This document shows, piece by piece, positions 1 to 14,126 of a stretch of 64,000 nucleotides of DNA (its first letter is position 1; each line of letters begins with the position of its first letter). The stretch lies in the NCBI GenBank assembly GCA_009729775.1, contig GCA_009729775.1_4081.1. One strand, given 5' to 3'. This DNA is from Escherichia coli. GTDB taxonomy: Bacteria > Pseudomonadota > Gammaproteobacteria > Enterobacterales > Enterobacteriaceae. A model generated the notes under the pieces. The model searched no databases. It was not told the origin of the DNA and worked only from the letters and a program-made list of their open reading frames with translations. The translations under genes and the position numbers were made by a program.

Positions 1-497
1 TCAATATCAATGTATTTCCTTGCGATATCTGCGTTTATGGACAAATACAAACTACCACCTGTCCTCTGACTCAGGATTCCATCTATCTGCGATATAGGAT
101 GGTTGTTATTGAGGATAAGCATTATTGTACTTATCTTGTGTGCTAATAACTCTATCTCATTCATAATTTACCTTATGGATTCGGGTGCAATAAATGATCT
201 TGATAACTTAAATGCTCTTGTGATATTGCACTTAAATAATAACTAAAATTTTCAATACCACCCTTTAAATGTATATTGTAATACAACTTAATACTTACTA
301 ATAAAGAATCATTTAAATCATTTATTGCTTTTGTATTAACCACTTTCATTAATGTTCTTCTCTTAAAAATCGTTTGATAGCATAATCTAAATAAAATTCA
401 TAACACATGCTATCTCTGTTCTTTATCCATATTTTGTAATCGGATTTTATATTACTTAACAAATAATTTGTATTAATTGTGTAATAATCTAATCGCC

Positions 498-887
498 CTA
501 ATCGTGCCATTTAATAGGATACTCCTTTCCTTGTACTACATAAGATATAATCCATCCGTAATGAATAGGACTATTCTTTTCTCCTTTAGGAATAAAATAT
601 AAAGATGTACTAGGATTATAACTGAATAAATCATTATTGTCAAATGTAAAATGAGATAACGTTATCTTCCTTGTACTTGGACTAATAACATTCTTAACAC
701 CAAACACGGTATCTTGATATTTCTCTGAAAATTCAAACAATGCATCTGTAATTAAATCATTGAATTCTATACATAATGGTTTAAAAGAACCATCATTATC
801 TTTGAATTCCTTATATAAAGAGCTTCTTGTATTCAAAAGAAATATTACTTTTTTAAGATCCTGAACTATTTCTGGATTCATATTCAT
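498..887 (-). CDS. hypothetical protein (129 aa)
   Basis: ORF-track minus ORF at the distal end of the paralog operon; start may be an internal Met. Confidence 0.5.
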   Translation of the reverse strand: MNMNPEIVQDLKKVIFLLNTRSSLYKEFKDNDGSFKPLCIEFNDLITDALFEFSEKYQDTVFGVKNVISPSTRKITLSHFTFDNNDLFSYNPSTSLYFIPKGEKNSPIHYGWIISYVVQGKEYPIKWHD

Positions 888-1119
888 TTATCTCATTCTG
901 TATCTTAAGCATCAAAATTTGCATATTAATTTTTTGTACAAGGTGCTTGATAAATTTCTGTGCCATTTCTTCTTGTTCTTTTGTACCAAGATAAAATAAC
1001 AGATTAAATTCTGATAATCGCAAAGAAAAATCTTCATCACCACCCTTTAAACAAAAATCCCTGTACTTTGTAGCGTACAAATATTGGTTTACCTTTTTAT
1101 AATACCCTGTGTTTTGCAT
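853..1119 (-). CDS. family-A small paralog (88 aa)
   Basis: Contains FYLGTKEQEE variant of the LGTNYQE family motif; packed end-to-end with neighbours. Confidence 0.55.
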   Translation of the reverse strand: MQNTGYYKKVNQYLYATKYRDFCLKGGDEDFSLRLSEFNLLFYLGTKEQEEMAQKFIKHLVQKINMQILMLKIQNEINEYESRNSSGS

Positions 1120-1307
1120 ACTATCTCCGTTCGCAACGAATTTATATAATAATGAACAAATTGTTCTTGTGAACGTGTTCCAAGAAAAATAAACATATCA
1201 AACTCTGTTGTTTTTAAATTCAATGCATCTTTTGTAAAATTCCTGTTGAATTCCCTGTACTTTTGGGTCTTCCATTCTTGATTAATTGTCTTGTATATCG
1301 ATTTCAA
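1089..1307 (-). CDS. family-A small paralog (72 aa)
   Basis: IFLGTRSQEQ motif; overlaps neighbours by a few nt. Confidence 0.55.
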   Translation of the reverse strand: MKSIYKTINQEWKTQKYREFNRNFTKDALNLKTTEFDMFIFLGTRSQEQFVHYYINSLRTEIVCKTQGIIKR

Positions 1308-1608
1308 TGATTCTCCCTGACATACCTTGTATTAGCTTATCATACATATCGAGCATCACTTTTTGAATATTAATTAGTACTGGCATCGTGCAAATATCAA
1401 TGTCGTATACTAAGCTGTACTGGAATAATTCATCTTCCTGCATTTGTACTAAATTAGGTAAAGGATAATTGTCTGCCTCTTCATCCTGATACTTGAAATG
1501 CATAACACCATCCTTTTTGTACAAAAGAATGTCAATATCACCTAACTCTTCTGCATAACCAAAAATACATATACTCGATGTTTTTGCTATATTAAATTTC
1601 ATATACAT
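1282..1608 (-). CDS. family-B protein (108 aa), ELFQYSLVYD motif
   Basis: Shares the acidic-FQYSLVHD motif with 1611, 2230, 2582, 41600, 57592 and 63199. Confidence 0.55.
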   Translation of the reverse strand: MYMKFNIAKTSSICIFGYAEELGDIDILLYKKDGVMHFKYQDEEADNYPLPNLVQMQEDELFQYSLVYDIDICTMPVLINIQKVMLDMYDKLIQGMSGRIIEIDIQDN

Positions 1609-1610
1609 CC

Positions 1611-1925
1611 TTATACATAAATTTGATAGACATTTTGAACAAAATACTTTGGAAGACTACTATATGATATCATCTGCCTTTGTACTTCCTTCATCTCTTC
1701 CAATGTCAATCCCAAAGAATCATCGTGTACTATCATGTACTGAAACTCGTCTTCTTCAGAGATATCAAATAAATTCGGTACTGCAATTATATCAATACCT
1801 ACCATCCAAAAAAAAGAATTATTACTTTTTCTGTACTCAAAAAAATTCAAAGAAGAACCACTCTGTAAATCAGATACCATAATGGAACATTCATCGTTAC
1901 GTACAATACAATTGAATTTACGCAT
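1611..1925 (-). CDS. family-B protein (about 104 aa), DEFQYMIVHD motif
   Basis: Start adjusted to internal Met (MRKFN...) that abuts the stop of the upstream gene (TAATG overlap). Confidence 0.5.
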   Translation of the reverse strand: MRKFNCIVRNDECSIMVSDLQSGSSLNFFEYRKSNNSFFWMVGIDIIAVPNLFDISEEDEFQYMIVHDDSLGLTLEEMKEVQRQMISYSSLPKYFVQNVYQIYV

Positions 1926-2170
1926 TATCTCCACCTCTCTCCGTCTGTACAAGAGTACTGGTACGTTGTCGTTAGGGTAGGGACCATGTTTGTAATGGGC
2001 ATGTTGTTAACAATAACCGTAACAGGCATAAGAATCGTCTCTTCTCTACTCTGTCCTGTCCTTGTGCAATTCATCTTTTGCATTTCATCTGAATCCATGA
2101 AATACAATACAAATGGTGCAATCCCAAGAACAATACACAAGACGATAAGGAAATTTAAAAAATTTAACAT
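1925..2170 (-). CDS. small membrane protein (81 aa)
   Basis: Hydrophobic N-terminal helix MLNFLNFLIVLCIVLGIAPFVLYF. Confidence 0.5.
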   Translation of the reverse strand: MLNFLNFLIVLCIVLGIAPFVLYFMDSDEMQKMNCTRTGQSREETILMPVTVIVNNMPITNMVPTLTTTYQYSCTDGERWR

Positions 2171-2229
2171 AATTTTTACCCTATGATTAACGTTAGTGTA
2201 CTATATCAGTAATGAAAAGTACTATCAAG

Positions 2230-2616
2230 CTAGTATTGCACTGTTCTAATGAAAGTGCCTGAACTCATGGATTTAAGCTTATGAACCTCTTCCTGTATAC
2301 CCTTGATTAACCCTAAAGGTATAGGTACATCATGTACTAAGCTGTACTGAAAGTATTCTTCTTCAGATAAAGTACTAACATCTGGAACTCCAATTTTAGT
2401 TAGATAATCTTGATGTGTTGACCAATAAATTATATCTTCAGTAGAATTGTACTCCCCATATACTGAACAATATTGATGAATATCTTTCCTGTACCCTTGA
2501 GCAATAAAGAACTTATCTACTGCATTACCAGCATTAATAGAATTCACTTCGATTGTCACAGTACTTGAGCTTGTATAACTCTTAATACTCAACTGTGTGT
2601 TCTTCATAATCACCAT
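2230..2616 (-). CDS. family-B protein (128 aa), EEYFQYSLVHD motif
   Basis: ORF-track minus ORF; family motif present. Confidence 0.55.
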   Translation of the reverse strand: MVIMKNTQLSIKSYTSSSTVTIEVNSINAGNAVDKFFIAQGYRKDIHQYCSVYGEYNSTEDIIYWSTHQDYLTKIGVPDVSTLSEEEYFQYSLVHDVPIPLGLIKGIQEEVHKLKSMSSGTFIRTVQY

Positions 2617-2926
2617 TAGGCTCCTGTTTAGATTCTTTCATTAGTACTATCATCTTATGTACTAATGGCATAGGGAACTCTAAATCCCATACTAATGATT
2701 CCTGGAAGTATTCCTCTGGTGATAAAGTACTTAAATCTTTAATATCAACGTGCTTGTATATTTTATTTTCGTAATTAACAAATGATATATATAAATCACT
2801 AACATAAGAATCATAGGTAATTGTGAATGGCTTACCCTTGTAATCCATTACATCTCTACATAGACTACTTTTGATATATGTATGTTCAAATGATTTATAT
2901 ACCTTGAGTTGTATATTAGTTTTCAT
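2582..2926 (-). CDS. family-B protein (114 aa), EEYFQESLVWD motif
   Basis: ORF-track minus ORF; family motif present. Confidence 0.55.
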   Translation of the reverse strand: MKTNIQLKVYKSFEHTYIKSSLCRDVMDYKGKPFTITYDSYVSDLYISFVNYENKIYKHVDIKDLSTLSPEEYFQESLVWDLEFPMPLVHKMIVLMKESKQEPNGDYEEHTVEY

Positions 2927-3191
2927 ATTTCTCTTTATTAGCTTGTTTGGTTTTATAGTGAATTAAATCTATTAATGTAATCAAGTACAACTTCAAAAAG
3001 TACTCTTGATGGTTCGTACCTAATGATACAAAGAATTTATGCTCATAAATTAAAACCTGTTTCACTTCAAAAGGACACTTAATCCTCTGTATAGGTTTAA
3101 GTAAATGGTAGTACTTGTATAATCTATTATGCATTTCTAATTCAGATAGTACTTTCATATTAAACACATACTCCATTAGCTGTAGCATCAC
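2916..3191 (-). CDS. family-A small paralog (91 aa)
   Basis: SLGTNHQEYF motif. Confidence 0.55.
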   Translation of the reverse strand: MMLQLMEYVFNMKVLSELEMHNRLYKYYHLLKPIQRIKCPFEVKQVLIYEHKFFVSLGTNHQEYFLKLYLITLIDLIHYKTKQANKEKYEN

Positions 3192-3381
3192 GTAAAGCTG
3201 TCAAATACTTCTGTACTGCTTGCTCTTGCTTATTTGTACCTAAAAGTATATACATCCATAATTCACTGTAATGTACATCTTGTGTATAAGGGTTGTTGTA
3301 ACTTTTTGATAATATAGCATCAAATTCAGATGCATGAACCCTTGTGAACTTAAGCATATCTTGTTGTGTTATGATTCTCAT
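3160..3381 (-). CDS. family-A small paralog (73 aa)
   Basis: LLGTNKQEQAV motif. Confidence 0.6.
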   Translation of the reverse strand: MRIITQQDMLKFTRVHASEFDAILSKSYNNPYTQDVHYSELWMYILLGTNKQEQAVQKYLTALRDATANGVCV

Positions 3382-3593
3382 ATCTTTTCCTGTATAAGCT
3401 TCTTAAGAATCTCAATATATGAATTAACAGTTCTCTCTTGATGCTGTGTTCCTAAGAGTGTCAGTACTATCATATCTGAACGCAAAAGATTTTTTTCAAG
3501 TTCACTTATATCAGTTCTTGAATCAAGTGCCATATATTTGTGATTATTCTTCCTGAATAGTGCCAAGTACTCTTGATTTGATATTTCCTTCAT
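3378..3593 (-). CDS. family-A small paralog (71 aa)
   Basis: LLGTQHQERTV motif; ATGA-type overlap with neighbour. Confidence 0.6.
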   Translation of the reverse strand: MKEISNQEYLALFRKNNHKYMALDSRTDISELEKNLLRSDMIVLTLLGTQHQERTVNSYIEILKKLIQEKI

Positions 3594-3817
3594 AGTCTAT
3601 CCTTGATGCCATTTAAAAGTGCTCTAATATGCTCATTGACAAAACGCTCTTGGGAATCTGTGTTTAGAGTGAGAAGCATTCTTAAATCTGAACTTTTTAT
3701 ATGATATTCTAAATCATTCTTTGATTCTCGCATAAGTTTCTGAAAGGATGAGAAGTGTAATCCCATGAGTTCAATGTATTCTGCTGTTCCTAGGGGTTTG
3801 TGTATATGTTTGTGCAT
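3590..3817 (-). CDS. family-A small paralog (75 aa)
   Basis: LNTDSQERFV motif. Confidence 0.6.
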   Translation of the reverse strand: MHKHIHKPLGTAEYIELMGLHFSSFQKLMRESKNDLEYHIKSSDLRMLLTLNTDSQERFVNEHIRALLNGIKDRL

Positions 3818-4029
3818 TTTAATTGTATTACCCTTTTGAGTGTATTAATGTAATTATACACATTGGCTTCTTGATAGTTAGTTCCTAGAGTAGCTTGAAC
3901 GTAGATTTCATTTAACTTAATGATTTTATCAGTATCTGGTAGTTTTGATGTGTTAATGGCAAATAACTTCAAAAACAGTCCATTTATGATTGTTAGGTAT
4001 TCTTCTTCTGTAATGATTTTCATTTGCAT
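3790..4029 (-). CDS. family-A small paralog (79 aa)
   Basis: LGTNYQEANV motif. Confidence 0.6.
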   Translation of the reverse strand: MQMKIITEEEYLTIINGLFLKLFAINTSKLPDTDKIIKLNEIYVQATLGTNYQEANVYNYINTLKRVIQLKCTNIYTNP

Positions 4030-4235
4030 TTTCTCAGTACTGATTCTTTAAGTTCATTGATGTAGTCCTCAATGTATTGCTCTTGTAAGTTAGTTCCAAC
4101 ATATAAAAGAACTCTTAAATCGGCTCTAAGTACTTCTTTGTCATCATCATCTATATCAGACAGTGTTATGTTTAAGAATTTACTTGCATTCTCTATAAGT
4201 AATATTACTGAATCACCTTCGCTTAAAATTTTCAT
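4020..4235 (-). CDS. family-A small paralog (71 aa)
   Basis: VGTNLQEQYI motif. Confidence 0.6.
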   Translation of the reverse strand: MKILSEGDSVILLIENASKFLNITLSDIDDDDKEVLRADLRVLLYVGTNLQEQYIEDYINELKESVLRKCK

Positions 4236-4443
4236 AATCTCTTTTTGCTTTCCTCGCCAAAAGGTACATATACGATTCTTCGTATTGTGCTTGATAGTTT
4301 GTGTTTAAGAGTCGAAACAACTTCTGTTCTGCTAGAACGAGTTGCTTATCTTCATAACAACGATAGCGTATCAACTTTTTGTATTCGATGTTGATTACAT
4401 CCATTACTATAAGCCCATGTTCATCATCTGTCAAGTGTTTCAT
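4213..4443 (-). CDS. family-A small paralog (76 aa)
   Basis: LNTNYQAQYE motif. Confidence 0.6.
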   Translation of the reverse strand: MKHLTDDEHGLIVMDVINIEYKKLIRYRCYEDKQLVLAEQKLFRLLNTNYQAQYEESYMYLLARKAKRDYENFKRR

Positions 4444-4669
4444 GTATCTTTTCCTTAATAGTGATTTTAAGAGATTTAATTATACGTTCAACGTGATACT
4501 CCTGTCTATCAGTTCCAAGAAGGTATGGTAGTGCTTGGAATAGAGCTTCCGCATTCTTTTCCTCTGGGGTTTGGTTTGGATCATTAGGAAGTTGATTGGC
4601 ATATCTCTTGGCACTAACTAATCTCTCGACGTATTCATTATATGTTAAGTATATCATTTCATTTTGCAT
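4424..4669 (-). CDS. family-A small paralog (81 aa), near-duplicate of 4659-4895
   Basis: LLGTDRQEYHVERIIKSLKITIKEK; close protein and DNA identity to the next gene. Confidence 0.6.
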   Translation of the reverse strand: MQNEMIYLTYNEYVERLVSAKRYANQLPNDPNQTPEEKNAEALFQALPYLLGTDRQEYHVERIIKSLKITIKEKIHETLDR

Positions 4670-4895
4670 TTACTTTTTCCTTAATAGTAATTTTAAGATA
4701 TTTAATTATACGTTCAATGTGATACTCTTGCCTATCAGTTCCAAGAAGGTATGGTAATCTTTGGAATAAAACTTCTGCACTCCTTTCTGCTGGGGTTTGG
4801 TTTGTGTTGTGAGGAAGTTTATTTGTAAGTCTTTTGGATTTATCTAGTCTTTCTGTTAACTCATCATGTGTTAAGTATATCATTTCCTTTTGCAT
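4659..4895 (-). CDS. family-A small paralog (78 aa), near-duplicate of 4424-4669
   Basis: LLGTDRQEYHIERIIKYLKITIKEK. Confidence 0.6.
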   Translation of the reverse strand: MQKEMIYLTHDELTERLDKSKRLTNKLPHNTNQTPAERSAEVLFQRLPYLLGTDRQEYHIERIIKYLKITIKEKVNAK

Positions 4896-5122
4896 TTAAT
4901 GTTCCTTACGTAAATTGTCTGGATTAAACAATCAATCCACGTTTGAATATATTGGTTTTGATACTGTGTGCCTAAAAGACTCTGCATTTTAAACTCTGCT
5001 TCAAGTTCATATCTCTTTTCTATAGAAAAGCTTAAATGACCATATTCCCTATCGTATCTTCTATGAGCTTCGCCAAGTCTATCAAATCTTTCTGATAATC
5101 TGATGTTATTAATTTTATTCAT
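4880..5122 (-). CDS. family-A small paralog (80 aa)
   Basis: LLGTQYQNQYI motif. Confidence 0.6.
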   Translation of the reverse strand: MNKINNIRLSERFDRLGEAHRRYDREYGHLSFSIEKRYELEAEFKMQSLLGTQYQNQYIQTWIDCLIQTIYVRNIKCKRK

Positions 5123-5409
5123 CGCTCAGTACACCTTAGTGGACGGGTCATTTGATAAAAGTACAGCTTACCTCTGATTTCCATTAGTAATTCATTTAAT
5201 ACGCGTTCTACCTCTTGTTCTTGATAGTTCGTGCCTAACAATGCACCCATCTTTAACTCACGCATCATAATCATCTTCTTACTGTGTTGAATTTCTGGGT
5301 TGTGATAGATTGTATTACGTTTAAGAGTAATTTTTGCCATACGCTCGGTATATTCATCTTTACTTAAATTAATCATTTTCATGTTAATTACCCTTACATT
5401 TATTTTCAA
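5119..5409 (-). CDS. family-A small paralog (ORF 96 aa; likely start at internal Met near 5382)
   Basis: LLGTNYQEQEV motif; internal MKMINLSKDEY matches the family N-terminus. Confidence 0.6.
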   Translation of the reverse strand: MKINVRVINMKMINLSKDEYTERMAKITLKRNTIYHNPEIQHSKKMIMMRELKMGALLGTNYQEQEVERVLNELLMEIRGKLYFYQMTRPLRCTER

Positions 5410-5614
5410 TACTATTCATGAGTTCTATAAGATAGTTTTCTACCTTACCTTCCTGATAGTTAGTCCCTAGGAAGTTGCACAACACGGCTTCTATAATTTT
5501 GATTTTCCTGATATCCGACTTCAATCTTTTGTTATTGAATATTTGAATCCTTATATCTCTGGATGCATTTAAACGTTTTTGATAGTCATGGTAAGTTAAA
5601 TGAATCATTTTCAT
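5384..5614 (-). CDS. family-A small paralog (76 aa)
   Basis: FLGTNYQEGKV motif. Confidence 0.6.
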   Translation of the reverse strand: MKMIHLTYHDYQKRLNASRDIRIQIFNNKRLKSDIRKIKIIEAVLCNFLGTNYQEGKVENYLIELMNSIENKCKGN

Positions 5615-5829
5615 TTACGTTTAACCTCTCGCTGGAGGGCATCAATTAACATTAGTACAGCATTCTCTTGATAGTTTGTTCCTAAGACTGAAAGCATCTT
5701 TATCTCATTTACTAAAATCAACTTCTTTGAGGGTTCAATAATGTGACTATCATAAACGGCCTTACGTGCTGGATAAGTTTTCGCCAGTATAACATAAAAT
5801 TCGTCTTTACTTAAATTAATCATTTGCAT
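5611..5829 (-). CDS. family-A small paralog (72 aa)
   Basis: VLGTNYQENAV motif. Confidence 0.6.
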   Translation of the reverse strand: MQMINLSKDEFYVILAKTYPARKAVYDSHIIEPSKKLILVNEIKMLSVLGTNYQENAVLMLIDALQREVKRK

Positions 5830-6038
5830 TTACTTTTAACCTCTTTCTGTAGAGCGTCAATCCATAGATCTACATACATTTGTTGATAGTTTGTGTCTAT
5901 TAGTGCACCTACATAGAGTTCAGCTACCATTGCGTGCTTTATGTCAATAGGGATGCTCTTATCAGATTGAATCTTTCTCCTTCTGCTTCCACATGTTTTC
6001 AGGAGCCTGATGTATTCAAAACCTTGTAAATTTCTCAT
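5820..6038 (-). CDS. family-A small paralog (72 aa)
   Basis: LIDTNYQQMYV motif. Confidence 0.6.
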   Translation of the reverse strand: MRNLQGFEYIRLLKTCGSRRRKIQSDKSIPIDIKHAMVAELYVGALIDTNYQQMYVDLWIDALQKEVKSKCK

Positions 6039-6250
6039 ATTTTGGATACCACCTTGTTACGTAAGGAACTTAATAATACGTCAGTGTAGATGTTTTGATA
6101 GTTTGTTCCTACGAATGCACCCAACTTCATTTCAGCTATTATAACACATTTGTCCTCTTGTGCAATAGACTTGTCTAAAGAAATACTAACAACTTTCCCT
6201 CTTATAGTTTGTAACCTCCAATGATACTGATACTCATTAAGGATTATCAT
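6035..6250 (-). CDS. family-A small paralog (71 aa)
   Basis: FVGTNYQNIYT motif. Confidence 0.6.
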   Translation of the reverse strand: MIILNEYQYHWRLQTIRGKVVSISLDKSIAQEDKCVIIAEMKLGAFVGTNYQNIYTDVLLSSLRNKVVSKI

Positions 6251-6497
6251 TCTCTCGTCTCCAGATTTCGGTTCTCATGTGTTGGCAGTGTGCATCAATA
6301 TATTGCTCTATCGATCTGGCGATTGCTGTTTTATCAGTGCCTGTCATCAGTACAAGCATCTCTGCCTCACTATGAATTAAACGCATGATATCATAGGGTA
6401 ATATTTCAGATACTGTATCATAGTGTTTGTGTGTCAGTGTCTGCAATAGTTTACAATACATTTTGTGATTTAGTCTTTGTCGCATTGTTTCTTCCAT
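6237..6497 (-). CDS. divergent family-A-like small protein (86 aa)
   Basis: LMTGTDKTAIARSIEQYI in the family motif position. Confidence 0.5.
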   Translation of the reverse strand: MEETMRQRLNHKMYCKLLQTLTHKHYDTVSEILPYDIMRLIHSEAEMLVLMTGTDKTAIARSIEQYIDAHCQHMRTEIWRRENDNP

Positions 6498-6742
6498 TCT
6501 CTTCTGGCTTGACGGGTTTTTTCTGATATTTCGTTTCTCAATGCAGAGATATATCGTAGAGTGAACAGTTCTTGATAGTTAGTCCCTATGAATTTATTAA
6601 GATATACATCAGCGTTGACGATATCAGCTTCACGGGAATTATAAAGTTTATTGTTCGTGCGAAGGGTGTTTAGAAGAGAGAAGAGGGCAGTCTGATACTC
6701 AGTGCTTGATAAAGTTTTCATATTTTTCCACAATTCGTTCAT
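6470..6742 (-). CDS. family-A small paralog (90 aa; start may be internal)
   Basis: FIGTNYQELFT motif. Confidence 0.55.
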   Translation of the reverse strand: MNELWKNMKTLSSTEYQTALFSLLNTLRTNNKLYNSREADIVNADVYLNKFIGTNYQELFTLRYISALRNEISEKTRQARREWKKQCDKD

Positions 6743-6956
6743 TTAGTTTTATCTGTATAAGATCCATTAGTTGTTCAAGATAATCGGTACAATATTTCTC
6801 TTGATATTGGGTTCCCACAAAGTACAGCAACCATAGCTCATGAACTTTAACTTTCATCTCGTTCCATGAAAGTGCATCGTCATCGTAGATTACTCTTGCT
6901 TCTGGGGTGAGCTTTCTAACTCTAATTGAATATTCATCGTCAGTTAAGTGTTTCAT
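6699..6956 (-). CDS. family-A small paralog (85 aa)
   Basis: FVGTQYQEKYC motif. Confidence 0.6.
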   Translation of the reverse strand: MKHLTDDEYSIRVRKLTPEARVIYDDDALSWNEMKVKVHELWLLYFVGTQYQEKYCTDYLEQLMDLIQIKLNERIVEKYENFIKH

Positions 6957-7171
6957 TTACATTTATCCCTTATTAGATTTGTGAGGGCAACTATGTGTGC
7001 AACAACATACTCTTCCTGAAAGTTCGTCCCCAGTACAGCCATCATGCGTATATCGGTGGTGTTTATCCTGTGTTCCCTTACACATAAACCTTCTTTGTGA
7101 GGAAGTGTAAAATATTTGTTTATTGCAGCAATGACAATTTTATTCTTCTCGGTGATACTTAAATGTTTCAT
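6953..7171 (-). CDS. family-A small paralog (72 aa)
   Basis: VLGTNFQEEYV motif. Confidence 0.6.
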   Translation of the reverse strand: MKHLSITEKNKIVIAAINKYFTLPHKEGLCVREHRINTTDIRMMAVLGTNFQEEYVVAHIVALTNLIRDKCK

Positions 7172-7380
7172 AGTTTACTCCTGATATAATTCTGAAGTGC
7201 AATTAAGTATTCCCCTACATAATACACCTGAAAGTCTGTATCAAGGAATGCACCCATAAGTAAATCTTTTTCTAATACCCTTGATAAGTTAAGGTCTGCA
7301 TTTGAAAGGTATATAAGTAAGATTTCACCCTGTGCGGAATTGAAACGTTTCTTATATTCTTCTGGTGTTAAAAAAATCAT
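7168..7380 (-). CDS. family-A small paralog (70 aa)
   Basis: FLDTDFQVYYV motif; close paralog of 7377-7592. Confidence 0.6.
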   Translation of the reverse strand: MIFLTPEEYKKRFNSAQGEILLIYLSNADLNLSRVLEKDLLMGAFLDTDFQVYYVGEYLIALQNYIRSKL

Positions 7381-7592
7381 AATTTGCTCCTGATATATTT
7401 CTCAAGAGATGACAAATACTTTTCCTCATAATACTTCTGATAGTCTGTTCCTAAGAATGCACCCAATAGTATATCATTTTCCAATACCTCGGCTAAGTTT
7501 AAATCAGAAGTCTCTTCGTATATTATGAGGATTTCAAGTTGTCTGGCAGCGATGCGTTCAGTATATTGATATGAGTTTTCTATAATAATCAT
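7377..7592 (-). CDS. family-A small paralog (71 aa)
   Basis: FLGTDYQKYYE motif. Confidence 0.6.
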   Translation of the reverse strand: MIIIENSYQYTERIAARQLEILIIYEETSDLNLAEVLENDILLGAFLGTDYQKYYEEKYLSSLEKYIRSKL

Positions 7593-7798
7593 AATTTACT
7601 CTTTATATCTTCTATTAAAAATCGAATCCATTCTTCAACATAATCTTCCTGATGGTTTGTGTTCAGTACAGCCAACATGCGGATCTCTGCTCTTGCAACT
7701 TCAATTTCAGTTTTAGGAAGGTCTTTGCTGATATCCACCATTAAGTCCATGTATTTCAAGATAAGTCCGAATGATTGGGTTCGTGTTATAGTTTTCAT
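7589..7798 (-). CDS. family-A small paralog (69 aa)
   Basis: VLNTNHQEDYV motif. Confidence 0.6.
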   Translation of the reverse strand: MKTITRTQSFGLILKYMDLMVDISKDLPKTEIEVARAEIRMLAVLNTNHQEDYVEEWIRFLIEDIKSKL

Positions 7799-7995
7799 TG
7801 TTTCCTCGTGGACAATGTTTTATTTTTCAATGTATCCACATATTTCGTTACCCATGCATCCTGATAGTTAGTTCCCAATGTAATCAAAAGGTATAACTCC
7901 ATTCGTTCTACGTGTGAGTCTGTATTATAAATCTTTGTGAAGTTTTTACGTAACAGTGCTTGATATTCTTTTTCGGTTAATTTACGCATTTTCAT
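7795..7995 (-). CDS. family-A small paralog (66 aa)
   Basis: TLGTNYQDAWV motif. Confidence 0.6.
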   Translation of the reverse strand: MKMRKLTEKEYQALLRKNFTKIYNTDSHVERMELYLLITLGTNYQDAWVTKYVDTLKNKTLSTRKQ

Positions 7996-8189
7996 AGTTT
8001 ACTCGTTACATCTTCAATTAAATACCAAATCCAATCGTTGACATACCTTTCCTGAAAGTTAGTTCCAATGAATAGTGCCATAATTAATTCACGCTTATAG
8101 GCAATACCACGGTCATGGGACTTATACATTATCATAGCCATGTTATTGATAAGTCTTTCGTGGTGTTCTGCTTGAGTTAAAATACGCAT
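7992..8189 (-). CDS. family-A small paralog, first gene of the array (about 65 aa)
   Basis: IGTNFQERYV motif; start adjusted to MRILTQ... preceded by AAGGGAG RBS. Confidence 0.6.
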   Translation of the reverse strand: MRILTQAEHHERLINNMAMIMYKSHDRGIAYKRELIMALFIGTNFQERYVNDWIWYLIEDVTSKL

Positions 8190-8438
8190 AGGGACTCCCT
8201 TAAAATTAATATCAATCATATTTTATACGATTTGTATAAAAAGTCAATAACATTTTATTCGTAATACCCCTTTATCGAAGTCGCTAAGGTTACCCGCCCT
8301 TTAGCCCCCTACGCATTTTGCCATAGTCCAATCCCTTTTATTTCAAAAAAGTCAAGGGATTACCTATGCATTTTTTTAACGCATAATTTTAAAAACGCCT
8401 TGACTTTTTTCTGAATCAGTACTAGATCCCTTTACGCA
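8190..8438 (-). promoter_or_regulatory. non-coding leader upstream of the family-A operon with hairpins
   Basis: No ORF; inverted repeat AATCCCTT...AAGGGATT and several TTGAC-like boxes on the minus strand. Confidence 0.3.
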
Positions 8439-8648
8439 TTAATCCTTCGTTACGCTAACGATTATCTGTGTATCCCCGTAGTCCTGCCATACTTCCACGC
8501 CATCCGTCGCCCTGGTTAGTCGTGCTGTCATCTGCTTAACAGTCTTAGGCTTTAGTGGAACCTGTTGCAGTACTGTACGCATAGCATCACTGACGTTATC
8601 ATGTACGCCAGCAATAGTACCTAGAACGCTGTATACTGTATAGAACAT
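8439..8648 (-). CDS. hypothetical protein (69 aa)
   Basis: ATG preceded by AGGAGGG RBS on minus strand. Confidence 0.6.
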   Translation of the reverse strand: MFYTVYSVLGTIAGVHDNVSDAMRTVLQQVPLKPKTVKQMTARLTRATDGVEVWQDYGDTQIIVSVTKD

Positions 8649-8716
8649 ATGTATGCCCTCCTGATATAGTTAAGGCCGCTAGAGAGCGGCCTATGATGTT
8701 TGGTGATGTGTAATGC

Positions 8717-9118
8717 TTATAGTCCTAAGATAGTGCGTGCTTCGTTACGTTCCGTCCATAGCTGCATGATGTGAGCAAGTAAGTCCTTACTAATGTATCC
8801 GGTGTTCATAGCTTCACGGATAGATACATCATAAGCACCGAACCCCGTGCGAACGATACGCACATCATTTAGGTTAGTGTTATAGATACCGCCAAGATCA
8901 ACGGCTTCGAATACTGCATCAACTGAATACTCATTGTTACCATCGTTGAAGTTTTCTAGTGCAATAGTATTGGATACCGCCCAACGTTTGCAGTTTCCAA
9001 TGATGCGGCATTGTTCCGGTTGGAGAGTGCCATTACTTACAGCGTACTCCAGTGCATCTTTACCAAAAGTCCGAGCCAGTACTAAAACGTCAGCGAAGGA
9101 AGTGATTGAGAAGGTCAT
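8717..9118 (-). CDS. hypothetical early protein (133 aa)
   Basis: Start adjusted to MTFSITSF... with AAGGAG RBS; upstream part of the track ORF is the hairpin leader. Confidence 0.65.
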   Translation of the reverse strand: MTFSITSFADVLVLARTFGKDALEYAVSNGTLQPEQCRIIGNCKRWAVSNTIALENFNDGNNEYSVDAVFEAVDLGGIYNTNLNDVRIVRTGFGAYDVSIREAMNTGYISKDLLAHIMQLWTERNEARTILGL

Positions 9119-9172
9119 GATAAAACTCCTTAATTTAGGAGGGAGAACCATTTCCCCCTCTCTATGTAAAAC

Positions 9173-9200
9173 ATTATACTTGATTCTAAGTACTATGCAA
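9173..9200 (-). promoter_or_regulatory. sigma70-type early promoter (minus strand)
   Basis: Minus strand reads TTGCAT-N16-TATAAT, followed by leader hairpin and the gene at 9118. Confidence 0.55.
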
Positions 9201-9207
9201 GTACTTT

Positions 9208-9534
9208 TTACATTTTAATACCTGGATTCAGGTAGCGGTGAGATCCGTATTCTGGATCTGTTTCGGTCCAGTACTGTAAATCTATAGTACCCTTTGCGTT
9301 AATCTTGTCTACTAGCTTATTCATCTTAGTGTAGACTACTTCGCTAGGGATGTAGTGTAATCCTTTATTATAGAAGTAGTGGTTAGCTTCACTATCGTTT
9401 AAGATATAGCGTGCACCGTTTGCGGTTTGTGCAACAATGAAAGAGTATTCTACTTCCCGATCATTACCATCAACAGTAATGCGGTCGAAATTGGTACGGA
9501 TGAAAGCTTTAACGATAGCGATTGAAGTACTCAT
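9208..9534 (-). CDS. hypothetical early protein (108 aa)
   Basis: TAGGAGA RBS upstream of ATG. Confidence 0.65.
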   Translation of the reverse strand: MSTSIAIVKAFIRTNFDRITVDGNDREVEYSFIVAQTANGARYILNDSEANHYFYNKGLHYIPSEVVYTKMNKLVDKINAKGTIDLQYWTETDPEYGSHRYLNPGIKM

Positions 9535-9684
9535 GGTGAATCTCCTAACTTTGTGGGCCGTCGCACCATTGCCGCCCTACGAGATACATTATTGCAGTAC
9601 TGATATACTTTGTCAATACTTTTTTTGAAATAGTTTTGAGTACTGGAATTACATCCACCAGCAGATAGTTACTCACCGTTATGA

Positions 9685-9712
9685 ACTATCTTACAGATAC
9701 TTCTCTGCACCC
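9685..9712 (+). repeat. conserved 28-bp intergenic motif AGATAC...TGCACCCTGTGGGCTAG (copy 1)
   Basis: Read directly; same core in at least 8 intergenic sites. Confidence 0.7.
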
Positions 9713-9739
9713 TGTGGGCTAGTTTTTGTCTATGCGTAT

Positions 9740-9779
9740 ATAATAGCAAAGGGACTGACCGGAGTCAATCCCTTTTTTT
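9740..9779. terminator. stem-loop cassette GGGACTGACCGGAGTCAATCCC with flanking T-run; TTGACT box inside the stem
   Basis: Hairpin 9751-9772, T7 run on plus side; on minus strand TTGACT-N17-TATTAT promoter geometry. Confidence 0.55.
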
Positions 9780-9790
9780 ATTCTTTTTTG

Positions 9791-9991
9791 TTAGATGATT
9801 CTCCAATCTTCTACCAGGATTTTAATATACCGTACCAGTGATTCGAGTGATTCCACTTCCCGATAATCGGTAGCCGTTTGCACGGAACAAGTACAGCCGA
9901 TCAAGCCATTGCCAAGCTCTTTGATCTGTACATCGATGCAGTTGGCTTTTGCTTCATTCAGTACTGCAACCAATTCGTTAGCGATTGACAT
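9791..9991 (-). CDS. hypothetical early protein (66 aa)
   Basis: AGGAG RBS; ORF track. Confidence 0.6.
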   Translation of the reverse strand: MSIANELVAVLNEAKANCIDVQIKELGNGLIGCTCSVQTATDYREVESLESLVRYIKILVEDWRII

Positions 9992-10079
9992 AATGTTTTA
10001 CTCCTAAAGGTGCGGGAGAACTATTCCCCCGCTCTATGTAAAACATTATACATTATCTTGTAGTACTGTCAAATAGTTT

Positions 10080-10337
10080 TTATGAGATATCTTCGATATA
10101 GTCGGCCCATGTCATTTGTTCAGTACTATCGAGTGCACCAGGATTATTTGGATCAAACCATTCGCCATCCCCTAAGTACATTGCAGCGGATACCGCTTTA
10201 TAGCCATTATAGGCGTTATTCCACTGCATAGCACGATAGATATGGCCTTTAATTGGTGTTAGTACTGGTAACGTTTTATGGTCTTCTACGTAGGCTGTAG
10301 CGATTGGATTTACCCGATACGTTTTGAACTGTTCCAT
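10080..10337 (-). CDS. hypothetical early protein (85 aa)
   Basis: AAGGGGA RBS; ORF track. Confidence 0.6.
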   Translation of the reverse strand: MEQFKTYRVNPIATAYVEDHKTLPVLTPIKGHIYRAMQWNNAYNGYKAVSAAMYLGDGEWFDPNNPGALDSTEQMTWADYIEDIS

Positions 10338-10411
10338 GATGTTTCCCCTTTAGTTAGTAAAGTTAATACAACAGTACTATCACGCATTGTCAATAGTACT
10401 GAAATAAAACT

Positions 10412-10636
10412 TTAGATTAGATTATTGATGCCGTTGATGGTAGACTCGCTTTCTTCTTTCTCCCATTGGCGGTAATACTTCCATGCTTCATGATAGGTGG
10501 CGATCAGTTCATCTTTTTGATCCTGAGTACATGCCAGTACTGAATCACTGTAAGCGGTGTTATAGATAGAATCAAATGATTTCTTCTCTTCTGCCAGGGT
10601 AGCTACTTCCCGCATCAGTTCATCAAAGTTAGCCAT
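10412..10636 (-). CDS. hypothetical early protein (74 aa)
   Basis: Start adjusted to MANFDELM...; track ORF N-terminus is leader. Confidence 0.6.
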   Translation of the reverse strand: MANFDELMREVATLAEEKKSFDSIYNTAYSDSVLACTQDQKDELIATYHEAWKYYRQWEKEESESTINGINNLI

Positions 10637-10719
10637 TTTAGTACTCCTTATTAGTGGGGGAGGATATCTCCCCCTATGCAAAACATTATACTTTGTTTTA
10701 CTTACAATGCAAGTACTTT

Positions 10720-10911
10720 TTAAATTTTATTTCCGATATAGTCCGGCCTGTTCTTTTCGGTCATACGCTTAAGCATTTTTTGCATATGGCTTATTGCTTG
10801 TAGTGTATCCTCTTCCAGCGATGAATCAAGATAATCAGGATCATTCTTCACCTTACAATGATTATGATAGCGTAGTACTGCCAGTACTTTTTTAACTTCT
10901 TCAACTGTCAT
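10720..10911 (-). CDS. hypothetical early protein (63 aa)
   Basis: ATGA start-stop overlap with upstream gene (translational coupling). Confidence 0.55.
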   Translation of the reverse strand: MTVEEVKKVLAVLRYHNHCKVKNDPDYLDSSLEEDTLQAISHMQKMLKRMTEKNRPDYIGNKI

Positions 10912-11180
10912 AATAAGTATTCCACTTCGTTTGCTTTCAGGTTAGTATCAATCATCAGTGGCTTTTTGTAGTCCACAAAACGATTAGTTTTTTCGATAGC
11001 GAAGCCCATATAATCCAGCTTGCTTACCGTGCATTCATTCTTAAAAACTTCTTTCGCTGCATTGATGGCTGATTGCAATGTTAACCGACCATCTAAGTTA
11101 ATGTTTCCAAATGATCCACCAGCAGAAGTAGGATTACCGTTCATATCTTTAATGATCATAGTTGCGGAGTAGCTAGACAT
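10908..11180 (-). CDS. hypothetical early protein (90 aa)
   Basis: AAAGGA RBS; ORF track. Confidence 0.6.
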   Translation of the reverse strand: MSSYSATMIIKDMNGNPTSAGGSFGNINLDGRLTLQSAINAAKEVFKNECTVSKLDYMGFAIEKTNRFVDYKKPLMIDTNLKANEVEYLL

Positions 11181-11233
11181 AATTTTGTTTCCTTTTAGTA
11201 TCGGGGAGAACTATTCTCCCCTTGATGTAAACT

Positions 11234-11261
11234 ATTATACAGTACTGATATACTTTGTCAA
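11234..11261 (-). promoter_or_regulatory. sigma70-type early promoter (minus strand)
   Basis: Minus strand reads TTGACA-N16-TATAAT with CAGTACTG abutting the -10. Confidence 0.6.
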
Positions 11262-11264
11262 TAC

Positions 11265-11486
11265 TTAATTACGTTTAAAATGATATGTACCTTTATCATC
11301 CTGTACGCCCCATACTGATTTACCATCAACGCCAGTGAAGCCGGATTGCAATTCAATATGGAAACCATTATTATCAACTACAAAAACTTTTTTATTTTCA
11401 TCCCGATAACATTGATATTCTGAATCAACATTAAAGGCCGCATCATTCAGAAGATTGGAAGCGTAAATGCAAGTCATTGTAGTCAT
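11265..11486 (-). CDS. hypothetical early protein (73 aa)
   Basis: Start adjusted to MTTMTCIY... Confidence 0.6.
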   Translation of the reverse strand: MTTMTCIYASNLLNDAAFNVDSEYQCYRDENKKVFVVDNNGFHIELQSGFTGVDGKSVWGVQDDKGTYHFKRN

Positions 11487-11612
11487 GATTTTATTCCTTA
11501 TTCTTTGAGGGAGAACCATTTCCCCCTCTCGATATAAAACATTATACTTGATTCTAAGTACAATGCAAGTACTTTTTTAAAAATAGTTTTCAGTACTGAA
11601 TACTTATATAAT

Positions 11613-11640
11613 AGATACACTTCCGCACCCTATGGGTCAG
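11613..11640 (+). repeat. conserved 28-bp intergenic motif (copy 2)
   Basis: AGATACACTTCCGCACCCTATGGGTCAG. Confidence 0.7.
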
Positions 11641-11673
11641 TGAGTTATCTCTCAATGAATATATAATAGCAAA

Positions 11674-11701
11674 GGGACTGACTGGAGTCAATCCCTTTTT
11701 T
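11674..11701. terminator. stem-loop cassette GGGACTGACTGGAGTCAATCCC plus T-run
   Basis: Same cassette as 9740-9779. Confidence 0.55.
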
Positions 11702-11709
11702 AATCTTTT

Positions 11710-12294
11710 TTATCGTGTTATAGTTATCGCGTTAACATCACGTTTTTTATAGTACTGATTCCAGATATTGCGGGTTAAACCGTAATCAAGTACTTTAATC
11801 AAGCCGTTGCGATCCTGGCCGATATTCTGTTTTCTGATATCTCTTATCGTTAGTGTGGATAATGTATCATCAACGTGATTGAGAGCATCAGCGAAATGGT
11901 GATGGCGTTCAATAGTGTTACGTTTAATATTGTACTTTAACTCATTACATGCGGTTACGTGCTTTACACTGCCTTTGCTTGCAGTACTCAAACGATCCAT
12001 AACAATAAACAGATTATCAGGATCGCATAAATGCATATGCACCTTGGCAAAGAACTGTTTAAGGTGCGGACGGTCATAATCTAAAAAATTCCATACCTTA
12101 CATTCAGTTTCATTTTGTTCTACACCCGCATCACAATTCGCGACCTTAATCACTAACCGATCATTTAAAGCGAATACAATACGGGAAGAACCCGCACCGA
12201 CGATCTCCAGTCCAGCTAACCGACAAGCTGAAAGGATCTCTTTGTTGGTTTCCATTGCATGAAGTGAACGGATGAATTTAGTATAGTTACGCAT
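11710..12294 (-). CDS. putative protein-kinase-like protein (about 194 aa)
   Basis: Start adjusted to MRNYTKF... with AAGGAG RBS; GAGSSRIVF glycine-loop-like, VIKV lysine, DIRKQNIG catalytic-loop-like and LDYG (DFG-like) motifs. Confidence 0.4.
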   Translation of the reverse strand: MRNYTKFIRSLHAMETNKEILSACRLAGLEIVGAGSSRIVFALNDRLVIKVANCDAGVEQNETECKVWNFLDYDRPHLKQFFAKVHMHLCDPDNLFIVMDRLSTASKGSVKHVTACNELKYNIKRNTIERHHHFADALNHVDDTLSTLTIRDIRKQNIGQDRNGLIKVLDYGLTRNIWNQYYKKRDVNAITITR

Positions 12295-12325
12295 TGTGTT
12301 GACTCCTTGAGTTAATGAAACTATA

Positions 12326-12568
12326 TTACAGTACTTTACTATCAATGGCAACTACTTTTTTTACTTGAACTGCGTGGAATACTTCACGCGTATTTTTAGT
12401 ACTGAATACTTTTGCCGTACCTTGTTCGACCGCAATACGATAGCGACCGTTAACGTCCACCATGTTGATAAAGTCCGGTGTACTGAATGGAGTTACCCGG
12501 CATTTAAGAACGGTTAACAGTTCCACCAGCGTGGTAGTCTCTTTGATACGTTTTTCTAAAGTAATCAT
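12326..12568 (-). CDS. hypothetical early protein (80 aa)
   Basis: Start adjusted to MITLEKR...; TTGACA-N17-TACTAT promoter just upstream. Confidence 0.55.
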   Translation of the reverse strand: MITLEKRIKETTTLVELLTVLKCRVTPFSTPDFINMVDVNGRYRIAVEQGTAKVFSTKNTREVFHAVQVKKVVAIDSKVL

Positions 12569-12625
12569 TTTGTTTTCCCCGTGTTGGTATGCATTCATAG
12601 TACTAAAACATTTGAGTACTGTCAA

Positions 12626-12844
12626 TTAGATAATAGAATATTTCTTTAGTGATAATGCGTCTTCTGTCGGTTGATATTCTACACCGTTCCCGTTATCAAC
12701 CTTAGTGAGTAAACCTTTATCAATGAGTTTTTTGATGGTACGGTTTCCCTGTTGAAAACTAGTGAAGTGTGAATCATTACGAAAGGTATAACCGTGCTTC
12801 ACTGCTTCATCAATAGTTTTCTTTTCGATTTTAGATAATTTCAT
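12626..12844 (-). CDS. hypothetical early protein (72 aa)
   Basis: ORF track; purine-rich RBS. Confidence 0.55.
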   Translation of the reverse strand: MKLSKIEKKTIDEAVKHGYTFRNDSHFTSFQQGNRTIKKLIDKGLLTKVDNGNGVEYQPTEDALSLKKYSII

Positions 12845-12902
12845 TTTGTTTCTCTCTCTCTGTGTTGGTATAGATACATAATACTAAAACATTTGAGTAC
12901 TG

Positions 12903-13157
12903 TCAACGTGATATTAGTTTTATTTTTTTATTGTATTGTTGGTGTTCATATAGATTAATTTTTCCAGTACTCTCGATCACTATTCTATTGTTAGTGTCTA
13001 CATCGATAACACGTAGTTTCCCGTTGCTTAACTTCCTAGGCAATAGACTACCATTAATAAACTCATTAGCAAGCTGTACGGCCTTTGTGATGATTCTCTG
13101 TGGTGCTTTATAGTGTACCCGCAAGATATTATCTTTAGATAGTTGTACCTTCATCAT
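12903..13157 (-). CDS. hypothetical early protein (84 aa)
   Basis: AGGATA RBS. Confidence 0.55.
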   Translation of the reverse strand: MMKVQLSKDNILRVHYKAPQRIITKAVQLANEFINGSLLPRKLSNGKLRVIDVDTNNRIVIESTGKINLYEHQQYNKKIKLISR

Positions 13158-13172
13158 TTTAGTTTATCCTAT

Positions 13173-13197
13173 AAAAAAGGCGGGAACTGAACCCGCC
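13173..13197 (-). terminator. rho-independent terminator
   Basis: GGCGGGTTCAGTTCCCGCC hairpin followed by U-run on the minus strand, just after the stop of 13221-13616. Confidence 0.7.
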
Positions 13198-13220
13198 GTG
13201 TTGTTAGTACTGCAAAGTTA

Positions 13221-13616
13221 TTAGATAACCTGGCGGCGTTTACTGTATACTGTTACACGGTTTCCTTTACGGTCATGACGGATCTCTTTCTGGTTACGAA
13301 TCAGTTCACTTGGACGCTTAAGGTTTGCCAGGTGATCCGCGTGAGTCCATGCATTACTATTCACTTGTACTTGAATATCAGAACCTTCCAAGAAGTCATC
13401 TTGAGCGTTCAGTACTTCAGCCAGTTCTTGAGCTTTCTTCAGTTCTGCTTCAGTAAGTACTGGTTCAGGTGAATTCACAATATCAGAGATCTCTTTGAAC
13501 TGTACCGCCCAGCGTTGTCCTTTCGGTGCATCTTTGCCCATGTCTTTAAATGTTTCACCTTCTTCACGGGCAACGATGCGAGCTTGTTCACGGGTAGCGA
13601 AGAATTTAGTAATCAT
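13221..13616 (-). CDS. hypothetical protein (131 aa), paralog of 25412-25678
   Basis: Shared FATRE-AR-G-TFKDMG and IKHDRKGNRVTVYS blocks. Confidence 0.65.
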   Translation of the reverse strand: MITKFFATREQARIVAREEGETFKDMGKDAPKGQRWAVQFKEISDIVNSPEPVLTEAELKKAQELAEVLNAQDDFLEGSDIQVQVNSNAWTHADHLANLKRPSELIRNQKEIRHDRKGNRVTVYSKRRQVI

Positions 13617-13715
13617 GGTGTACATCCTATTAGTTAAGTTAATTAGTACTACAAGTTAGAGTCTATTATAAAGTACTATCTGGGTAATGTCAAATAGTAC
13701 TTTAAATGGATTCTA

Positions 13716-14039
13716 TTACATGTCTTTCTTACGTTTTACATCGTAGTAACGAACTGTAATTTCTTTGTTGATCTCTTCCTCAATTCTGTGTAGTACTTTC
13801 TCTTTCGGGTTGAAACCTATTACAGTTTCTTTAATGATCTCCAAGCCCGTGTATTCGCCTTGTGTACCGTAACCGTAAGTAAAGGTTTCATGTCCCAGGT
13901 CTTCCCAGCGGTCACCAATCAATGCAGACACGTAGCATGAGTGGTAAGTATTGCCGTGGCTATCAGTCCACCGATTAACTTTAATGTCAAAGGAAGTTAC
14001 AATTTTCATTTCTACTTTCTGGGTAAGGATCATAGCCAT
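13716..14039 (-). CDS. hypothetical protein (107 aa), paralog of 20340-20684
   Basis: Shared GNTY, YGYG and C-terminal VKRKKD motifs. Confidence 0.65.
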   Translation of the reverse strand: MAMILTQKVEMKIVTSFDIKVNRWTDSHGNTYHSCYVSALIGDRWEDLGHETFTYGYGTQGEYTGLEIIKETVIGFNPKEKVLHRIEEEINKEITVRYYDVKRKKDM

Positions 14040-14095
14040 TTTAATTTCTCTCTTTTAGTTAGGAGGGGAACCATTCCCCTGCCTTGATGTAAACT

Positions 14096-14123
14096 ATTAT
14101 ACAGTACTAAGATACTTTGTCAA
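14096..14123 (-). promoter_or_regulatory. sigma70-type early promoter (minus strand)
   Basis: TTGACA-N16-TATAAT on minus strand. Confidence 0.6.
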
Positions 14124-14126
14124 TAC

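Follow-up and report, generated by a model that had tools for sequence, protein, structure and literature searches.

The 64,000-nt stretch of DNA analysed here (hereafter the window; Escherichia coli assembly GCA_009729775.1, contig GCA_009729775.1_4081.1) belongs to an Asteriusvirus, a 121Q/PBECO4-like jumbo coliphage, and carries between positions 853 and 8189 an array of 26 small minus-strand genes of one protein family, 25 of them secure members and one doubtful. The array is a genuine one, of greater age and stability than the initial annotation of this DNA had supposed: it is an ancient tandem expansion of a single orphan family, made by tandem duplication, in which diversity resides between the paralogs and not in fast turnover. 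As to what the proteins do, the reading preferred here, with a probability of roughly 0.4, is that they would be non-virion binder proteins, expressed early in infection for host takeover or counter-defence.

The gene set was taken from the list of open reading frames (ORFs) covering window 1-10,000, and a family profile was then searched against the 736 six-frame ORFs of the 64-kb window. The matches were exactly the 26 genes (E 1e-18 to 1e-26), with the next-best ORF at E 0.9. A leave-one-out (LOO) profile test, used as a non-circular check of membership, recovered 25 of the 26 (E 7e-6 to 1e-19), the sole failure being the gene at 6237-6497. The claim of 26 small minus-strand paralogs with a common LGT motif is thus borne out. 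With starts placed at a conserved M-K-x-L, all members are 65-88 amino acids (aa) long, a refinement of the about 65-95 aa first given. Every one of the 26 reading frames is intact, and the copies, all on the minus strand, are packed in 7.3 kb, or about 2% of the phage genome. They had been described as consecutive, which is correct for the 24 gap-free genes at 2916-8189; the last two (853-1307) are set off by five non-family ORFs (1282-2926). The features of the array are, in order of transcription:

7992-8189, minus strand: member 1, 65 aa; LOO E 2.5e-13; ATG start at 8189 behind the ribosome-binding site (RBS) AAGGGAG
7795-7995, minus strand: member 2, 66 aa; LOO E 2e-13; ATGA overlap
7589-7798, minus strand: member 3, 69 aa; LOO E 4.2e-17; ATGA overlap
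7377-7592, minus strand: member 4, 71 aa; LOO E 1.8e-12; 51% identity with member 5
7168-7380, minus strand: member 5, 70 aa; LOO E 9.8e-15
6953-7171, minus strand: member 6, 72 aa; LOO E 2e-17
6699-6956, minus strand: member 7, 85 aa, with a C-terminal tail; LOO E 1.1e-18
6470-6721, minus strand: member 8, 83 aa from the MKTL start (the ORF reaches 6742); LOO E 3.2e-13
6237-6497, minus strand: member 9, doubtful and divergent, with LMTGTD and without Q-E; fails LOO
6035-6250, minus strand: member 10, 71 aa; LOO E 1.4e-16
5820-6038, minus strand: member 11, 72 aa; LOO E 1.2e-19
5611-5823, minus strand: member 12, 70 aa; LOO E 2.9e-17
5384-5614, minus strand: member 13, 76 aa; LOO E 5.2e-17
5119-5382, minus strand: member 14, 87 aa; LOO E 2.3e-19
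4880-5122, minus strand: member 15, 80 aa; LOO E 3.6e-10
4659-4883, minus strand: member 16, 74 aa; LOO E 2.4e-18
4424-4657, minus strand: member 17, 77 aa; LOO E 1.4e-18
4213-4443, minus strand: member 18, 76 aa; LOO E 1.6e-8
4020-4235, minus strand: member 19, 71 aa; LOO E 6.1e-19
3790-4023, minus strand: member 20, 77 aa; LOO E 1.1e-18
3590-3817, minus strand: member 21, 75 aa; LOO E 7.6e-13
3378-3593, minus strand: member 22, 71 aa; LOO E 1.9e-17
3160-3381, minus strand: member 23, 73 aa; LOO E 1e-12
2916-3158, minus strand: member 24, 80 aa, end of the gap-free block; LOO E 8.2e-11
1282-2926, minus strand: five non-family ORFs splitting the array (ORF list, PHROG matches)
1089-1307, minus strand: member 25, 72 aa, TTG start; LOO E 3.2e-12
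853-1119, minus strand: member 26, 88 aa, the most divergent of the clear members; LOO E 6.6e-6

On a mechanical ORF call the array would extend to 8219, the start of a longer ORF for member 1. This start falls within the promoter-like site described below, and the true start is therefore placed at 8189, where it had originally been called and where the RBS precedes it. The gene at 6237-6497 (member 9) is counted as a probable, unproven member of the family. A profile-profile alignment to the other members with hhalign is colinear but weak (probability 30%, E 5e-4), against a probability of 1.5% for the control, an unrelated neighbouring family of ~60-aa proteins whose kinship with the LGT family was rejected on that value. 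The AlphaFold2 (AF2) model of member 9 has the same order of elements (helix-helix-loop-helix) at a low predicted local distance difference test score (pLDDT 65), and the gene forms an ortholog group of its own that is kept in 7/7 genomes. Among the interrupting ORFs, three or four belong to a second small paralog family, phrog_13866-like, with the motif S-E-E-E-x-F-Q-Y-S-L-V-H-D, and one (81 aa, with a hydrophobic N-terminus) matches phrog_8826.

The family is held together by an N-terminal motif, M-K-x-L-[TS]-x-x-E-Y, and by a central block that the alignment of the 26 ORFs gives as h-L-G-T-[ND]-[YF]-Q-E-x-x-V-x-x-[YW]-I-x-x-L-x-x-x-I-x-x-K, where h is hydrophobic. Beyond these the paralogs are, as had been noted, highly diverged, with a mean pairwise identity of 24% for the proteins, 41% for the DNA (close to background at 32% GC) and 34% at third codon positions. 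In repetitive DNA a motif of this kind might arise at the nucleotide level, with no protein family behind it, an alternative that the initial annotation had itself named. The G, T and L columns of the motif use 4-5 synonymous codons each, the DNA identity between copies is near background with third positions at 34%, and a confident AF2 fold is obtained from the paralog alignment. The artefact is ruled out by the synonymous codon use at conserved columns, its probability is practically negligible, and the motif is one of proteins.

The predicted fold is compact and all-helical. The AF2 model of member 1, made from the paralog alignment, is a three-helix bundle (pLDDT 97.3; predicted template modelling score, pTM, 0.80) with helices at residues 6-24, 29-39 and 46-63 (19, 11 and 18 residues) and with residue 2 beta-bridged to T43 of the motif, and other family members superpose on it at template modelling (TM) scores of 0.8-0.9 (BFVD). 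Structure searches with the three-helix model found no informative structural neighbour. Column statistics over 119 sequences, non-redundant at 80% identity, place the constraint at M1, K2, L4, T/S5, E8, Y9, L13, E34 and L37 in the N-terminal half and, from the motif onward, at L41, G42, T43, N/D44, Y45, Q46, E47, V50, Y53, I54, L57, I61 and K64, with G42 (110/119), T43 (114/119) and Q46 (118/119) near-invariant. T/S5-x-x-E8 and N/D44-x-x-E47 resemble helix N-capping boxes, and positions 50, 53, 54, 57 and 61 form a single hydrophobic stripe, while the remaining helix positions have an entropy of 3.2-3.9 bits and are nearly free between paralogs. This pattern is read, on the model, as that of a conserved scaffold of helix caps and a buried face that would present variable exposed faces. 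The proteins contain 0-2 Cys each and no hydrophobic segments (grand average of hydropathy, GRAVY, -0.9 to +0.1), and their net charge ranges from -6 to +6 (pI 4.4-9.7), with 15 of the 26 basic (pI >= 8.0).

Such small helical bundles, more than half of them basic and with an L-G-T turn that superficially recalls the turn of a helix-turn-helix (HTH), could also bind nucleic acids, in an HTH-like or histone-like manner, and so regulate transcription in the phage or its host. Both the fold and the spread of charges disfavour this, which makes it quite improbable; an HTH or DNA-binding identity was rejected on the fold, the loop length and the charge spread, and neither HTH geometry nor a match to HTH families or structures was seen.

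The phage origin proposed for this DNA is confirmed by 86-95% DNA identity to the Asteriusvirus phages UB, PBECO4, 121Q and E9.1, and the array-bearing genome is that of an E. coli jumbo phage of 350 kb. Matches to the array and to the remainder of the window come from 34-37 records, all of them E. coli or Salmonella Asteriusvirus jumbo phages of 310-386 kb (121Q, PBECO4, UB, phAPEC6 and G17 included). Phage UB ranks first among full-length matches to the array (90.5% identity), and its genes are annotated 'hypothetical protein' throughout. The family, which was not recognised at first, is an orphan: 25 of the 26 members match PHROG phrog_4148 over their full length (best E 7.8e-26), a cluster annotated as of unknown function, and this is the only match. 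Scans of all 26 members against Pfam, NCBIfam and PADLOC gave scattered single-member chance matches only, and a sequence profile search of the PDB gave none (best E 2.6).

As far as these searches reach, the family appears to be restricted to the genus Asteriusvirus, since the matches from every source are limited to phages of this type. Searched by profile, 1.84 billion representative proteins yielded only 86 clusters, of 52-122 aa save one 269-aa fusion, and tblastn with 15 highly divergent representatives against 50,697 phage records matched 36, all of them E. coli or Salmonella jumbo phages. The named homologs are all 'hypothetical protein' and come from Asteriusvirus-type phages or from phage-sized contigs in draft E. 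coli assemblies; many lie on contigs of 345-360 kb labelled 'Escherichia coli', and these contigs are complete Asteriusvirus genomes that were assembled together with the bacterial isolates. The array is absent from complete RefSeq E. coli genomes, and of five matches in a back-translated motif scan of IMG/VR only a 121Q contig holds family members, the other four being chance. Two fusions were seen. Phage UB encodes, at 3,750-4,556 of the locus compared, a 269-aa protein in which an N-terminal LGT-family domain precedes a C-terminal domain of ~200 aa. This second domain matches nothing in Pfam or PHROG and is missing from the six other sequences of the comparison (the window and five phage loci). 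A 154-aa metagenomic protein (P0087) consists of two adjacent family members.

The number of copies differs among the genomes compared: 21 in Turkey5, 25 in 121Q, 26 in the window, 28 in E9.1, 30 in UB and phAPEC6, and 31 in WPEC5, PBECO4 and G17. At 60% identity the 201 members from seven genomes cluster into 37 types, of which 20 are present in 7/7 genomes and in the same order, the rest being inserted or missing singly. Positional orthologs are 34-100% identical in a mosaic pattern, and only two pairs look like recent duplicates, namely members 16/17, the most recent (68% aa, 80% nt), and members 4/5 (51%). Across the seven genomes the ratio of nonsynonymous to synonymous substitution (dN/dS) between orthologs comes to 0.21 at core and 0.44 at surface columns, within the range of ten unrelated flanking genes (0.12-0.49, with one at 0.79), and no pervasive positive selection is seen in this comparison. 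With ortholog dN/dS low and the slots conserved, every paralog represents a long-established lineage that purifying selection maintains. The suggestion that the family is rapidly evolving is not supported, given that about 20 types keep the same order in seven genomes.

These data also bear on the idea that the copies are largely functionless filler, duplications tolerated to fill a very large head in a genome-expansion ratchet. A tandem array in 121Q has indeed been cited as evidence of genome growth by duplication (Hua et al. 2017, PMC5646251), and there are several other tandem families within the window. The 26 intact frames, the ortholog dN/dS of 0.2-0.44 and the ~20 distinct paralogs kept across genomes all speak against filler, as do helix caps and a core conserved at 24% overall identity and the maintained RBS and ATGA coupling, so that this explanation is very improbable.

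Directly upstream of the first gene lies a sigma-70-type promoter-like site, and a little further upstream a conserved block that spans the boundary of a terminal repeat:

8220-8247, minus strand: sigma-70-type promoter-like site, TTGACT-16 nt-TAAAAT (consensus scan, 10/12)
8275-8297, minus strand: 23-nt block GCGGGTAACCTTAGCGACTTCGA spanning the inner boundary of the repeat at 8287, conserved even in the divergent Turkey5

Both hexamers of the promoter-like site are kept in eight related genomes, the divergent Turkey5 included, with TAAAAT, TATTAT and TAATAT as variants of the -10. Promoter-like matches within the array (for example 4434-4406 and 4508-4479) number 47 where chance would give 48, and internal promoters can therefore be neither claimed nor excluded, so the assertion that there are none is not demonstrable. 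The overlapping start and stop codons are as had been reported, with 14 ATGA overlaps, six overlaps of 14-28 nt and three gaps of 1 nt among the 23 junctions of the 24-gene block. Shine-Dalgarno-like sequences often sit within the last codons of the preceding gene, and this is part of the reason why the C-termini (...I-R-S-K-L) are conserved. On this evidence the one operon first proposed, polycistronic, coupled in translation and headed by a conserved sigma-70-like promoter, is plausible.

The repeat is best seen in the E9.1 record, whose two ends are 100% identical over 20,107 bp and form a direct terminal repeat (DTR) that maps on the window with its inner end at 8287 and its outer end at 28,110. 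G17, a separately deposited record, has the start of its repeat copy exactly at the position of this inner end, 98 bp away from the array's first start codon, and for phage Sharanji a DTR of 20,668 bp was determined by PhageTerm (PMC11895373). Window 8,287-28,110 thus corresponds to the ~20-kb DTR of E9.1 and G17. At the physical end (~28,110) the GC skew and the gene strand switch, and the window runs continuously through this point, which makes it an assembly with the repeat collapsed. The promoter-like site (8247-8220) lies on the array side, 40-67 bp from the boundary, and the array starts 98 bp beyond it and so lies outside the repeat. Given the position of the boundary, the unique region beside one repeat copy opens with the array as its first transcription unit, and the array is directed away from the repeat, as are the repeat's own small genes. 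Block GCGGGTAACCTTAGCGACTTCGA is a candidate recognition site for the terminase or for the repeat junction.

Within the repeat segment itself there are three copies of a hairpin, AAAGGGATTGACTCCGGTCAGTCCCTTT, at ~9,748-9,775, 11,672-11,697 and 15,031-15,056. The stem is terminator-like and one arm holds a TTGAC -35 box, so that these hairpins may serve as terminator and promoter in one between small early genes.

The proposed course of events begins with the host sigma-70 RNA polymerase, which would transcribe the 24-gene block, and probably the remaining members too, from the site at 8247-8220. The place of this site, beside the boundary of the ~20-kb repeat, would make the array one that is expressed early; the DTR genes of the related phage PA5oct are its highly transcribed early genes by RNA-seq (PMC7318152). 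Translation of the block as one coupled unit would then yield roughly equal amounts of each protein. The proteins may act stoichiometrically, as a repertoire of small binders built on one scaffold; this is the least supported of the steps. Each variable surface would recognise a different protein of the host or of a competing element, for takeover or counter-defence, and the selected property would be the breadth of the repertoire rather than evolutionary speed.

Such a binder repertoire would best account for (i) the position at the repeat edge behind a host-type promoter, together with non-virion status, (ii) soluble bundles of ~70 residues with fixed cores, free surfaces and a wide range of charge and (iii) ~20 non-redundant paralogs kept by selection in addition to a variable accessory set. 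The non-virion status follows from phAPEC6, whose orthologs (gp462c-gp489c) are absent from its 62-protein virion proteome (Table 1, PMC7247149); within the detection of that experiment, the array proteins are thus not virion components. That the targets of the binders are host proteins is assumed here, and the host-interaction or anti-defence role offered in the initial annotation is likewise a reasonable guess from sequence.

Several points weigh against this reading. The timing of expression and the operon structure are deduced from the DNA alone, and in the library and structure searches no partner, phenotype, homolog, domain or structural neighbour ties the family to a function; a literature search found no transcriptome or functional study of any Asteriusvirus. 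A counter-defence arsenal would usually be marked by strong presence/absence variation and by signs of positive selection, whereas ~20 of the 26 slots are core and surface dN/dS, at 0.44, is below 1. The near-invariant G42, T43 and Q46 could mark a site common to the paralogs, which would fit a common partner, and coupling for equal stoichiometry also fits a multi-subunit assembly.

These last points lead to the proposal that the paralogs assemble with one another, into a hetero-oligomeric structure that lies inside the cell and is no part of the virion, or into a chaperone-like complex. Co-assembly would account for the constancy of set and order and for the equal amounts, and the proposal draws on the ~20 paralog types in the same order across seven genomes, on the tight translational coupling (ATGA at 14/23 junctions) and on the polar cluster common to all members (G42-T43-Q46-E47, E34 and E8); fixed order, coupling and the shared cluster fit co-assembly almost as well as they fit a binder repertoire. 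The AF2 monomer, however, is confident and compact alone, the surfaces are near-unconstrained between paralogs (3.2-3.9 bits) and single members are gained or lost over a copy number of 21-31, for which reasons co-assembly is considered fairly unlikely.

A related alternative places the array in competition between phages or between phage and satellite, by superinfection exclusion or anti-satellite activity. It would draw on the same evidence as the binder model (early position, non-virion status, variable surfaces), which does not distinguish the class of target. Many exclusion proteins carry a membrane anchor or signal peptide, but there is neither in the members (GRAVY -0.9 to +0.1), nor were homologs found in other phages or satellites among the 1.84 billion proteins and 50,697 phage records searched, and the alternative is improbable.

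Returning to the binder repertoire, its closest structural parallel may be the Z-domain of protein A and the affibodies, which are binder scaffolds formed by a three-helix bundle. The LGT proteins, as modelled, are alike in being bundles of ~60-70 residues with a fixed core and free surfaces, and the parallel is one of how they might work, as an analogy only; they differ in an extra N-terminal beta-bridge and in helices of unequal length, and there is no sequence or significant structural match.

With regard to genome position, early blocks at phage genome ends are exemplified by the pre-early genes in the terminal repeat of T5 and by the host-takeover module of SPO1. As in these and in PA5oct, the array comprises many very small genes near a terminal repeat. 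Those blocks have host-type promoters; the conserved TTGACT-16-TAAAAT upstream of the array, a consensus match only, would be its candidate for one. The blocks of T5, SPO1 and PA5oct consist of unrelated genes that often have promoters of their own and lie inside the repeat, whereas the array is a gap-free unit of one paralog family that starts 98 bp outside the boundary at 8287.

Terminal multigene families with a role in host range or immune evasion are also known from African swine fever virus (ASFV; MGF110/360/505) and from the poxviruses (terminal ankyrin and Bcl-2-like families). The array resembles them in adjoining a terminal repeat and in varying in copy number (21-31 in nine genomes); there is no homology, the array proteins are far smaller, and the likeness is one of position and copy number, known here from the genes alone. 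In its strongest form the binder reading would make the array a hard-wired repertoire of 20-30 target-specific inhibitors on one three-helix scaffold, expressed from a single early operon and each neutralising a different defence or housekeeping protein, and, together with the ~60-aa array, the phage counterpart of these poxvirus and ASFV families. This form is unlikely.

Lineage-specific tandem expansion in jumbo phages is already known as a phenomenon. The array shares with earlier cases the many small one-strand tandem paralogs, the confinement to a single phage lineage and the unknown role. Bacillus phage G has a ~35-copy family of zinc ribbons (Iyer et al. 2021, PMC7824862); in contrast, the LGT family is an all-helical three-helix bundle with 0-2 Cys, lacks the CxxC...CxxC motif and has no sequence relationship to it. 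Hua et al. 2017 devote a single sentence to a tandem array of 121Q (PMC5646251), a point repeated in the phAPEC6 paper (PMC7247149), and neither gives coordinates or an analysis. Because 121Q holds three arrays (25 LGT members, ~16 copies of the unrelated ~60-aa family and an RCC1-like array), the array meant by Hua et al. cannot be assigned to one family. The literature search found no description of the LGT array beyond those two sentences, and the entry for phrog_4148, which is the same family, is a cluster label with no description, structure, context or function. Neither the family nor its fold, anatomy or location at the repeat boundary is described in the literature searched.

Two other tandem families lie further along the window. 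The ~60-aa family occupies 28,367-31,244 on the minus strand, with the motif M-x-H-K-E-F/Y-Y ... Y-x-x-x-L-x-L-I. The window has 11 copies, while E9.1 has 21 annotated ones and 121Q about 16. The family adjoins the outer end of the repeat segment, and both repeat junctions are thus flanked by arrays of diverged small paralogs. At 31,317-41,418, on the plus strand, there are eight tandem RCC1-like ('DNA condensation') paralogs, and proteins annotated 'DNA condensation' are virion proteins in phAPEC6 (Table 1, PMC7247149).

More than 80% of Asteriusvirus genes are without known function, and these phages have been proposed for therapy against pathogenic E. coli. The array consists of selected, confidently folding proteins unlike anything known, sited where genes for early host takeover are expected, and the gene starts, the promoter-like site, the repeat boundary and the split into core and accessory members make the question of function directly testable. 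If the members do bind distinct host proteins, they would provide a ready set of ~26 probes or inhibitors for the functions or the defence systems of E. coli, and the array would be a natural example of building a repertoire on a minimal scaffold. If they co-assemble instead, an intracellular structure not yet known from jumbo-phage infection would be indicated.

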